From Octopus vulgaris (lineage: Eukaryota): 64,000 nucleotides of DNA. Positions within the stretch are counted from its first letter, which is position 1. The number at the start of each line of letters is the position of its first letter. The position numbers and the translations under genes were made by a program. Location of the stretch: the NCBI GenBank assembly GCA_951406725.2, contig OX597814.1:71858001-71922000 (forward strand), read 5' to 3'. Under the pieces are notes generated by a model. The model searched no databases, had not been told where the DNA came from, and was given only the letters and a program-made list of their open reading frames with translations. This document shows positions 58,982 to 61,394 of this stretch, piece after piece.

Positions 58982-59881
58982 TATATATATATATATATAT
59001 ATATATATATATATATATATATATATATATATATTTACATATATACATATATATATATATTTACATATATACATATATATATATATATATTTACATATAT
59101 ATATTTACATATATACATATATATATATATATACATATATATATTTACATATATACATATATATATATATATATTTACATATATATATTTACATATATAC
59201 ATATATATATATATATATTTACATATATATATTTACATATATACATATATATATATATATATTTACATATATATATTTACATATATACATATATATATTT
59301 ACATATATACATATATATATTTACATATATACATATATATATTTACATATATACATATATATATATATATTTACATATATACATATATATATTTACATAT
59401 ATACATATATACATATATATATACATATATACATATATATATTTACATATATACATATATACATATATATATATATATTTACATATATACATATATATAT
59501 ATATATATTTACATATATACATATATATATATATATATTTACATATATACATATATATTTACATATATATATATATATACATATATATATATATATACAT
59601 ATATATATATATACATATATATATATATACATATATATATATATATATACATATATATATATATATATATATATATATATATATATATATATATATATAT
59701 ATATATATATATATAACATAAGGGACTAAAGCCATCTGAATATGGCTAGGGACAGGGCAGGGTGGTGGGGGTGTTACTGTTGCATTTAGCCCCAGGCGAA
59801 CATCGACGTCACCAGAAAGGCTCGACACCGTCACGGTGCCCTAAACCTGCAAAGGGAGGTAATTCCCCGATGAAGCGGAAA

Positions 59882-59931
59882 CCACACACGGACCATGGTT
59901 TCAAGGTGTATTGCCTATCATCGGCGTGTGG
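59882..59931 (-). ncRNA. Type-I hammerhead (CCGAUGA core)
   Basis: Reverse complement of 60692-60741. Confidence 0.8.
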
Positions 59932-60241
59932 TAGGCCTCCGCTTCCTCGACGAATTCTCACTCTGCAGGATTTTCTTATATAGATTTTCAAGCAAAATAC
60001 ATTTGCTGATTTCGAAAATCTGTTCGAAAGCAATAATAATTCTCTAAAAGGGATACAGACAGTAACTGCTCGATAACATAAGGGACTAAAGCCATCTGAA
60101 TATGGCTAGGGACAGGGCAGGGTGGTGGAGGTGTTACTGTTGCATTTAGCCCCAGGCGAACATCGACGTCACCAGAAAGGCTCGACACCGTCACGGTGCC
60201 CTAAACCTGCAAAGGGAGGTAATTCCCCGATGAAGCGGAAA

Positions 60242-60291
60242 CCACACACGGACCATGGTTTCAAGGTGTATTGCCTATCATCGGCGTGTGG
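60242..60291 (-). ncRNA. Type-I hammerhead (CCGAUGA core)
   Basis: Reverse complement of 60692-60741. Confidence 0.8.
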
Positions 60292-60691
60292 TAGGCCTCC
60301 GCTTCCTCGACGAATTCTCGCTCTGCAGGATTTTCTTATATAGATTTTCAAGCAAAATACATTTGCTGATTTCGAAAATCTGTTCGAAAGCAATAATAAT
60401 TCTCTAAAAGGGATATAGACAGTAACTGCTCGATAACATAAGGGACTAAAGCCATCTGAATATGGCTAGGGACAGGGCAGGGTGGTGGGGGTGTTACTGT
60501 TGCATTTAGCCCCAGGCGAACATCGACGTCACCAGAAAGGCTTGACACCATCACGGCGTCCTCTATCCTGCAAAGGGAGATAATTATTATTGCTTTCGAA
60601 CAGATTTTCGAAATCAGCAAATGTATTTTGCTTGAAAATCTATATAAGAAAATCCTGCAGAGTGAGAATTCGTCGAGGAAGCGGAGGCCTA

Positions 60692-60741
60692 CCACACGCC
60701 GATGATAGGCAATACACCTTGAAACCATGGTCCGTGTGTGG
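60692..60741 (+). ncRNA. Type-I hammerhead (CCGAUGA core, palindromic stem III)
   Basis: cacacg-CCGATGA-t agg caataca cct t-GAAA-ccatgg-TC-cgtgtg; cut after 60732. Confidence 0.82.
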
Positions 60742-61394
60742 TTTCCGCTTCATCGGGGAATTACCTCCCTTTGCAGGTTTAGGGCACCGTGACGGTGTCG
60801 AGCCTTTCTGGTGACGTCGATGTTCGCCTGGGGCTAAATGCAACAGTAACACCCCCACCACCCTGCCCTGTCCCTAGCCATATTCAGATGGCTTTAGTCC
60901 CTTATGTTATCGAGCAGTTACTGTCTATATCCCTTTTAGAGAATTATTATTGCTATATATATATATATATATATATATATATATATATATATATATATAT
61001 ATATATATATATATATATATATATATATATATATATATATATATATATATATATATTAATATATATACATATATATATATTTACATATATATTTATATAT
61101 ATATATATATATATATATATATTTACATATATATATATTTATATATATACATATATATATATATATTTACATATATATATATTTATATATATACATATAT
61201 ATATATATATTTACATATATATATATTATATATATATATATATATATATATATATATATATATATATATATATATATATATATATATATATATATTTATA
61301 TATATACATATATATATATATACTGACATATATACATATATATATATATTGACATATATATATATTTTATTTTACTTTATTTTTTTATTTTATT

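Follow-up and report, generated by a model that had tools for sequence, protein, structure and literature searches.

Metazoan non-LTR retrozymes, such as the 350-390-nt repeats of mussels and Rtz_353 of the axolotl, have been described as non-coding tandem repeats of 150-450 bp with one type I hammerhead ribozyme (HHR) per unit, a GC content below 50%, strong self-pairing and target duplications of more than 4 bp (PMC7229834). For a mollusc the circular RNAs of retrozymes have been shown, and Penelope-like elements (PLEs) were proposed as their carrier (PMC7229834; PMC7761336; PMC11722881). PLEs with an endonuclease (EN+; Neptune, Hydra, Poseidon) occur as partial tandems with an inverted, 5'-truncated arm, two reverse transcription (RT) start sites, (TA)n targets and a type I HHR (PMC8557442, PMC3846280, PMC11167929), and beside the inverted 5' copy they have a tail, usually of 30-40 bp, at one end (PMC8557442; PMC3846280). 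In vitro, a PLE protein that is a predicted dimer cuts and extends both strands, and it starts RT at two internal sites bounding the tail with no observed strand preference (PMC11167929). A study of vertebrate retrozymes as PLE derivatives linked these non-autonomous HHR repeats to PLEs by co-occurrence and pLTR homology; in its available text no mollusc is sampled and mobilisation is left open (10.64898/2026.07.22.740005). In the accessible parts of PMC7229834, PMC8557442, PMC11167929 and 10.64898/2026.07.22.740005, the enzyme that mobilises animal retrozymes and the origin of the tail and inverted end of PLEs are both left open.

Here we analyse a repeat of this kind at positions 59713-60954 of a 64-kb stretch of Octopus vulgaris DNA (hereafter the window). 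Judged by its DNA-level features, its 360-nt family would belong to the non-LTR retrozymes, as a new family whose insertions bear the signature of a PLE. The unit agrees with the metazoan retrozymes of PMC7229834 in size, GC content, self-pairing and non-coding tandem structure: its arms consist purely of tandem units without LTR, PBS or PPT, each unit has the structure of one type I HHR (with a U4C core and no Rfam match), and the dispersed insertions have target duplications of 11-12 bp, by eye. Like HHR_Amex2, it carries a U.U pair where helix II begins, and its helix III has 2 bp (PMC7229834). It differs from these retrozymes in sequence and in being known here from DNA alone, and head-to-head arms, fixed ends, a tail and (TA)n targeting are absent from the accessible parts of PMC7229834, whose main text has no mention of inverted or microsatellite sequence, octopus or cephalopods. 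As in a non-autonomous element mobilised by PLEs, we observed a one-ended tail, two fixed putative start sites and a head-to-head inverted arm, which are also the marks of EN+ PLEs. Unlike the latter, the unit contains no ORF, its tail is 44-47 nt long instead of the usual 30-40 bp, its HHR is full and canonical, with a bulged stem I and a loop II, instead of minimal, and it has no homology to any pLTR tested (PMC8557442, PMC3846280, PMC11167929). It resembles the vertebrate retrozymes in being a non-autonomous HHR repeat tied to PLEs, but here the link is the insertion footprint (10.64898/2026.07.22.740005). It also differs from the non-autonomous Chlamys elements, for example MRC1, which have their 3' sequence in common with an autonomous partner and most of which lack a canonical HHR (PMC8557442). 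Size, a branched rod-like predicted fold and the HHR recall a viroid or viroid-like replicon; however, the element is genomic, its HHR is found in one polarity only and nothing indicates infectivity or RNA-to-RNA replication, so that the term "viroid-like" used in the original prediction found no support.

The one-of-each end rule presented below, a tail on any retrozyme and the 360-nt family itself were not described in the full-text literature, a scope that left aside subscription papers (including older reviews of PLE tails), Repbase and supplements; the accessible text of PMC6962438, PMC10886601 and PMC9977147 likewise contains nothing on the family. The family was originally thought to be undescribed, and in this respect the claim stands, but mollusc HHR repeats of 350-390 nt with circular RNAs had already been published (PMC7229834), and the link to PLEs had been proposed (PMC7229834; 10.64898/2026.07.22.740005).

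The locus holds a single insertion, in two head-to-head arms, of a 360-nt hammerhead repeat that is non-coding, young and dispersed. We number the unit from u1, the base after the predicted GUC cut. The A arm (59713-60585, minus strand) consists of 2.4 tandem units in RNA sense (u27-360, u1-360, u1-178), as determined by TRF and by BLAST of the unit; TRF gives a period of 360 nt, 2.4 copies and 97% matches, and tandem copies 1 and 2 show 3 differences when the unit is compared with the window by BLAST. The B arm (60582-60954, plus strand; BLAST of the unit), the last 373 nt of the locus, is inverted with respect to the A arm and holds 1.04 units (u210-360, u1-222). A 4-nt microhomology in the sequence, AATT (60582-60585), joins the two arms. 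The predicted 360-nt period was thus found again, but 59714-60954 had been described as one tandem array, and this plain-tandem reading overlooked the inverted 373-nt copy and the two start sites marked by fixed ends A and B, ~45 nt apart.

Outer end A (u174-178; 59713-59717, minus strand) corresponds to the putative RT start site A; its final bases are ambiguous with the TA target, and copies with a G at u177 place the start at or before u176. The tail of ~44-47 nt (u179-222; 60911-60954, plus strand) is present at one outer end only and terminates at fixed site B, the putative second RT start. Both ends abut (TA)n target tracts (58982-59712 on the left and 60955-61365 on the right, by TRF), and a repeat search of the whole window is dominated by (TA)n. 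The innermost part of the A arm is a patch (60543-60585, minus strand) that carries eight variants of an older subfamily (u32-68) and is identical to 27007-27052 across u27-73; it is likely a template switch or a conversion. Since this patch derives from another subfamily, a single template is not the whole story at 59713-60954.

As predicted, the unit is non-coding, since stops interrupt each of the six reading frames of the tandem, and heavily self-paired: it folds far better than its shuffles (z -5.6, with 0 of 100 shuffles as good), and its circular fold gives z -5.5. Covariation over the whole unit inside the 360-nt family is weak (5 of 91 pairs) and the fold of the tail region varies between predictions; we therefore claim no RT-binding structure. 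The expected type I HHR motif, one per complete unit, is present three times at the locus. In the B arm it spans 60681-60748 (plus strand; core 60699-60724), the GUC ending at 60732 and the cut being predicted after this position. In the A arm it spans 60235-60302 (minus strand; core 60284-60259), with a predicted cut between 60251 and 60250, and 59875-59942 (minus strand; core 59924-59899), with a predicted cut between 59891 and 59890. The motif comprises a stem I with a UAC bulge, the core CCGAUGA, GAAA and GUC. This core is a U4C variant, and the base of stem II carries a U.U pair (10.1-11.1). Stem III has only 2 bp and lies within the palindrome ACCAUGGU, for which an 8-bp intermolecular duplex of -11.2 kcal/mol is predicted; the predicted catalytic fold lies 7.4 kcal/mol above the local minimum. 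U4C lowers HHR activity in vitro yet permits viroid infectivity (PMC3088659), and by analogy with what was reported there the predicted HHR of the young subfamily would be weakened by this change. An axolotl retrozyme with U.U at the base of helix II cleaves better as a dimer (PMC7229834), and eight of nine Xenopus retrozyme dimers were without cleavage in vitro (10.64898/2026.07.22.740005).

Rfam gave no match at the gathering threshold in the whole window and none at E<=10 in the locus; with its U4C core and the U.U at stem II, the family would therefore be missed by a copy count based on Hammerhead_1. In 340 HHR-spanning stretches listed from the fetched loci, the cores of older subfamilies read UUGAUAA, UUGAUGA or UUGACGA. 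From this variation we infer that positions 3 and 8 stay paired and that position 7 is free: the core exchanges C3-G8, U3-A8 and U3.G8, and its remaining positions are invariant. Four related families supplied a set of 14 variants, chosen by hand, in which 14 of the 22 HHR pairs change on both sides; none of 500 shuffles matches this, and slid controls reach at most 5. Kinship among the sequences can inflate such counts and may by itself let them exceed the shuffles.

In the whole genome (2.8 Gb, 227 contigs), the 360-nt family is young and dispersed. A 38-nt HHR word has 808 exact occurrences, the best BLAST loci of the unit are 99-100% identical and spread over many chromosomes, and older copies go down to ~82% identity. 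End patterns followed by TA were found 521 times for site A (u178) and 747 times for site B (u222); when single ends were checked, 2 of 39 held only ~20 nt of the unit. L138 and L156, which match the B-end pattern, were rejected as B-end insertions: they have no PLE, and their unit sequence is only ~20 nt long. The original prediction was to be given up if copies occurred only as satellite blocks or as parts of a coding element; instead they are dispersed insertions, and the 120 mapped loci contain unit sequence only which, like the absence of an ORF from the unit, differs from an autonomous PLE with its RT and GIY-YIG ORF.

The diverged relative noticed earlier at 26981-27518 (plus strand) is ~91% identical to the unit by BLAST. 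It is a single-arm copy of an older subfamily (u1-360, u1-178) with a UUGAUAA core, which starts at the cut site and ends at site A ahead of (TA)n; its core is broken by GTAA for GAAA, a change seen in 1 of the 340 listed HHR stretches. A sister retrozyme, RZ2 (355 nt, roughly 70-75% identical), has the same ends as the 360-nt family and 11-12-bp target duplications in unique sequence; 12 of its loci are A/B, 3 more have a shortened A side and none is B/B, the B end being supplied by the query. The related hammerhead families form a retrozyme superfamily in the O. vulgaris genome, with conserved hairpins near both ends. At least five related hammerhead families besides the 360-nt one were encountered (L232:1486-1840, L091:345-1050, L031:2219-2510, L320:5580-5820, L272:2237-2542, L324:193-354), and RZ2 gave 4109 candidates at first look.

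To characterise the pairing of the outer ends, we used an unselected set of 67 A and 100 B ends (167 in all) listed from contig C1 and from the initial 119 Mb of C2. Of the 46 neighbour pairs in this set, 45 are head-to-head and one is same-strand. All 45 head-to-head pairs combine one A with one B end (no A/A, no B/B), an outcome with a probability of ~3e-14 under random end pairing. The 120 mapped loci comprise 85 A/B loci (20 of which had been picked as A/B pairs), one B/B locus that is a 42-nt piece, four with one unclassifiable end, 28 single arms and two others. Single arms end at A in 16 cases and at B in 12, and the A arm is the longer one in 34 of 76 simple two-armed loci; because either arm may be longer and both ends are found on single arms, A and B are probably both RT starts. 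Arm lengths range from 0.2 to 15 units, up to 5.3 kb, and the two arms of a locus correlate with rho 0.44, a value that may reflect locus sampling. The inner ends are scattered, whereas the outer ends are fixed at their two sites: in the 76 loci the inner junctions show an overlap of 1-8 nt (44), are blunt (15), gapped (12) or overlap over a longer stretch (5). An apparent accumulation of inner ends at u1 turned out to be mostly an artefact of BLAST boundaries and shrank on refinement. Target duplications of 11-12 bp were recognised by eye in imperfect TA at L041, L060, L154 and L159, and duplications are also present in unique sequence at L220, L230 and L235; among 61 loci, the shorter of the two flanking TA runs is 11 nt long in 6 and falls below this length in only 4.

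The window was also expected to contain PLEs, and it does. A 5'-truncated copy of a young Hydra-type family, H1, lies at 23578-25172 (plus strand), and a second, Hydra-like PLE at 8573-13129. The latter is 5'-truncated where it meets (TA)n; an asparagine-rich insert separates its RT from its EN, and it has a 2-kb AT-rich 3' region and an HHR-like motif near 12833. H1 has a 2606-nt monomer with a 717-aa open frame, in which the Hydra-clade motifs RWK, DKT and CxCx5C are present. It is very young, with dozens of identical EN-domain copies (a further copy is L190, C4:46714000-46723000), and CCGA is found in the core of its HHR-like motif, too. Both ends are in view at 21 inverted H1 loci, of which 16 are clean A/B, one is B/B and four are partial or complex; the H1 arms also extend beyond one monomer. 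A second very young PLE family, N1, which from its motifs we take to be Neptune-type, has a 4712-nt monomer with a 781-aa frame and possibly an upstream ORF (L270:2481-7272, C5:1038000-1047000). Its loci are A/B in 10 of 10 cases (the query having supplied the B end in one set), with a tail of roughly 40 nt and an ill-defined duplication, and its minimal HHR has a UUGAUAA core. H1 and N1, both autonomous, thereby obey the end rule of the 360-nt family, in agreement with the tail and the pair of RT start sites published for PLEs.

We looked for a partner of the 360-nt family among these elements. Comparison of the unit with the H1 monomer, the N1 monomer and 20 PLE 3' regions, a small sample of the PLE families of this genome, revealed no homology. 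H1 is an unlikely partner, its tail of ~65 nt and its target duplication of ~16-19 bp (by eye) being different. N1 and the older retrozyme families have in common the UUGAUAA core, a CAUG loop and a small tail hairpin; despite this, N1 was rejected for lack of alignable sequence and for its different spacing. A retrozyme-like match at L320, 1.3 kb behind a Neptune ORF, proved to be an insertion of its own, on the far side of a (TA)n end.

The two arms of an insertion carry nearly the same haplotype. In 75 two-armed loci, the arms are discordant in 36 of 3542 polymorphic cells (1%), compared with 22.5% between loci; for the 37 youngest loci the values are 5 of 1939 cells and 5.1%. Fifteen single-locus variants, at seven loci, occur in both arms, six of them in the lone divergent L155. 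In addition, 180 arms pass the predicted cut site ~303 times and halt within u359-u2 in five cases, where 1.9 would be expected, and the junction at this site is intact in nearly all of the 340 listed HHR stretches. The template was thus nearly always continuous across the cut site, as a circle or as an uncleaved multimer. Mixed units in both arms of L064 and periodic variants in L033 point to later exchange in long arrays, so that conversion could add to the haplotype sharing; the mixed units of L064 are a sign of later conversion or of template switching. L064 and L065 (C2:57.27-57.30 Mb) are long two-armed arrays only 14 kb apart, with different haplotypes. Contigs of four presumed-RNA runs cover the unit; each of the four runs shows the 360-nt back-joint, and X1, X5 and X14 contain a closed contig of 390 nt. 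We counted them neither way, since a circle, a tandem transcript and DNA would all fit.

Mobilisation of the 360-nt family by PLEs is almost certain in our view, as it is supported by the dispersed loci, the HHR covariation, the (TA)n targets, the 11-12-bp duplications and the two-ended tail; on these grounds, and on the PLE-type tail architecture, the original proposal of a retrozyme mobilised by PLEs is supported. Double priming on one template is very likely and, if it took place, this template was probably circular. On balance we favour a reading in which both target strands served a PLE RT-endonuclease as primers for cDNA, with one RNA, probably circular, as the template. Several observations weigh against it: the U4C and U.U changes and the energy of the catalytic fold, the poor cleavage of Xenopus dimers in vitro, the later exchange in long arrays, the subfamily patch in the A arm, the failure to find a partner among the PLEs compared, and the equal use of start sites on the two strands in vitro (PMC11167929). 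In its most specific form, to which we give an even chance, a two-armed insertion would be produced by a PLE dimer that uses two fixed sites of a single circular RNA and rolls twice around it (double rolling-circle TPRT). The arrays would be transcribed, the HHR would cut, probably as a dimer through its palindromic stem III, and the monomers would be circularised. The PLE protein dimer would then bind near the tail and nick both (TA)n strands 11-12 nt apart; synthesis would start at site A from one 3'-OH and at site B from the second, both RTs would circle the template for independent lengths to give tandem cDNAs, and the two cDNA ends would be joined and filled in. PLE RTs are not known to have an RNase H domain. 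Rolling-circle copying of a circular RNA, as suggested originally, is retained as the best reading of the read-through and of the common haplotypes, which an uncleaved multimeric transcript would also fit.

Such a transcript is the basis of an explanation that we consider possible but rather unlikely, in which the same PLE double priming takes place on an uncleaved linear multimer copied from a long array, the HHR being weak or playing no part in mobility. The motif is weakened by U4C and by U.U (PMC3088659; PMC7229834 on HHR_Amex2), HHR cleavage is dispensable for PAc insertion in vitro (PMC11167929), source arrays exist, with arms of up to 15 units, one four-site haplotype is common to L116, L118, L136 and L159, and H1 arms, too, run past one monomer. 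However, the single-locus variants 91C of L042 and 104G of L104 fill nearly all units of both arms, as do 254C of L136 and 291G of L053, each found at two loci, and near-fixed locus variants require a single-unit bottleneck followed by re-amplification. Daughter arms, moreover, could not outgrow their source, an argument to be read with the sample of only ~120 loci, which leaves room for unseen sources, and the HHR structure has been kept by compensatory change in four families. Single priming, with a cDNA that folds back and copies itself and a second fixed end that is an endonuclease resolution site, appears improbable. It would explain that the inner ends lie within 15 nt of each other in 15 of 76 loci (6.5 expected) and that the B arm is 26-52 nt longer in 11 of these 15 near-mirror loci, as a hairpin predicts, and self-priming (PMC3846280) and EN-mediated resolution (PMC8557442) have been proposed for the inversions and tails of PLEs. 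In the other 61 loci, however, the inner ends are not mirrored, either arm may exceed the other by several units, there are short A arms without the tail that the B arm holds, and A and B ends are both found on single-arm insertions; near-equal inner ends are also expected if two RTs halt at one break in a common template.

Copying of linear self-cleaved monomers with successive template jumps, perhaps from one RNA molecule to another, seems a shade more improbable still. Inner ends at u359-u2 are mildly in excess (5 against 1.9, P ~0.05 uncorrected), the copy at 26981 begins at the cut site, and the subfamily patch in the A arm shows that switching can occur, but ~98% of the passes cross the cut site, the junction there is intact in nearly all 340 listed stretches, and the haplotypes of the units in one locus are not drawn from the pool of the whole genome. 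That recombination at the DNA level spread the repeat as a satellite, or that it is an artefact of assembly across inverted repeats, we find very hard to credit. Assembly of AT-rich inverted repeats is difficult, and the long arrays show signs of unequal exchange; against this stand the short insertions dispersed over many chromosomes with fixed ends, the target duplications in unique sequence (L220, L230, L235), the same end rule in PLEs with open ORFs and the covariation at the RNA level.

The element alone is ordinary; it is the insertion footprint that renders the two open questions, on the mobilising enzyme and on the origin of the tail and inverted end, testable. With the 360-nt family, a non-coding RNA bears every PLE insertion mark, a footprint that goes beyond co-occurrence. 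With the strict A/B rule and the common haplotype, the description of a tail that is often one-ended becomes a precise prediction, namely a dimer on one template, and the short RNA and young PLE families with open ORFs in one genome make an in vitro test practical. Double rolling-circle TPRT, if true, would provide one mechanism for the PLE tail, the head-to-head inversion and the retrozyme tandems, and direct genomic evidence that animal retrozymes ride on PLE machinery.

Other HHR-like motifs were observed. In the window, short head-to-head insertions between (TA)n tracts at 18290-18927 and ~51108-51302 have one such motif per arm and are likely truncated ends of other PLEs; a further motif lies at 44652. 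In the fetched loci, we observed dozens of distinct HHR-like motifs with a long loop II, 40-300 nt upstream of (TA)n runs, which suggests many PLE families that Rfam would miss. Finally, the window contains long open LINE frames at 547-2700, 4764-7886, 14506-17706 and 29181-31616, several of which adjoin (TA)n; the frame at 4764-7886 has an APE endonuclease and an RT domain by Pfam.
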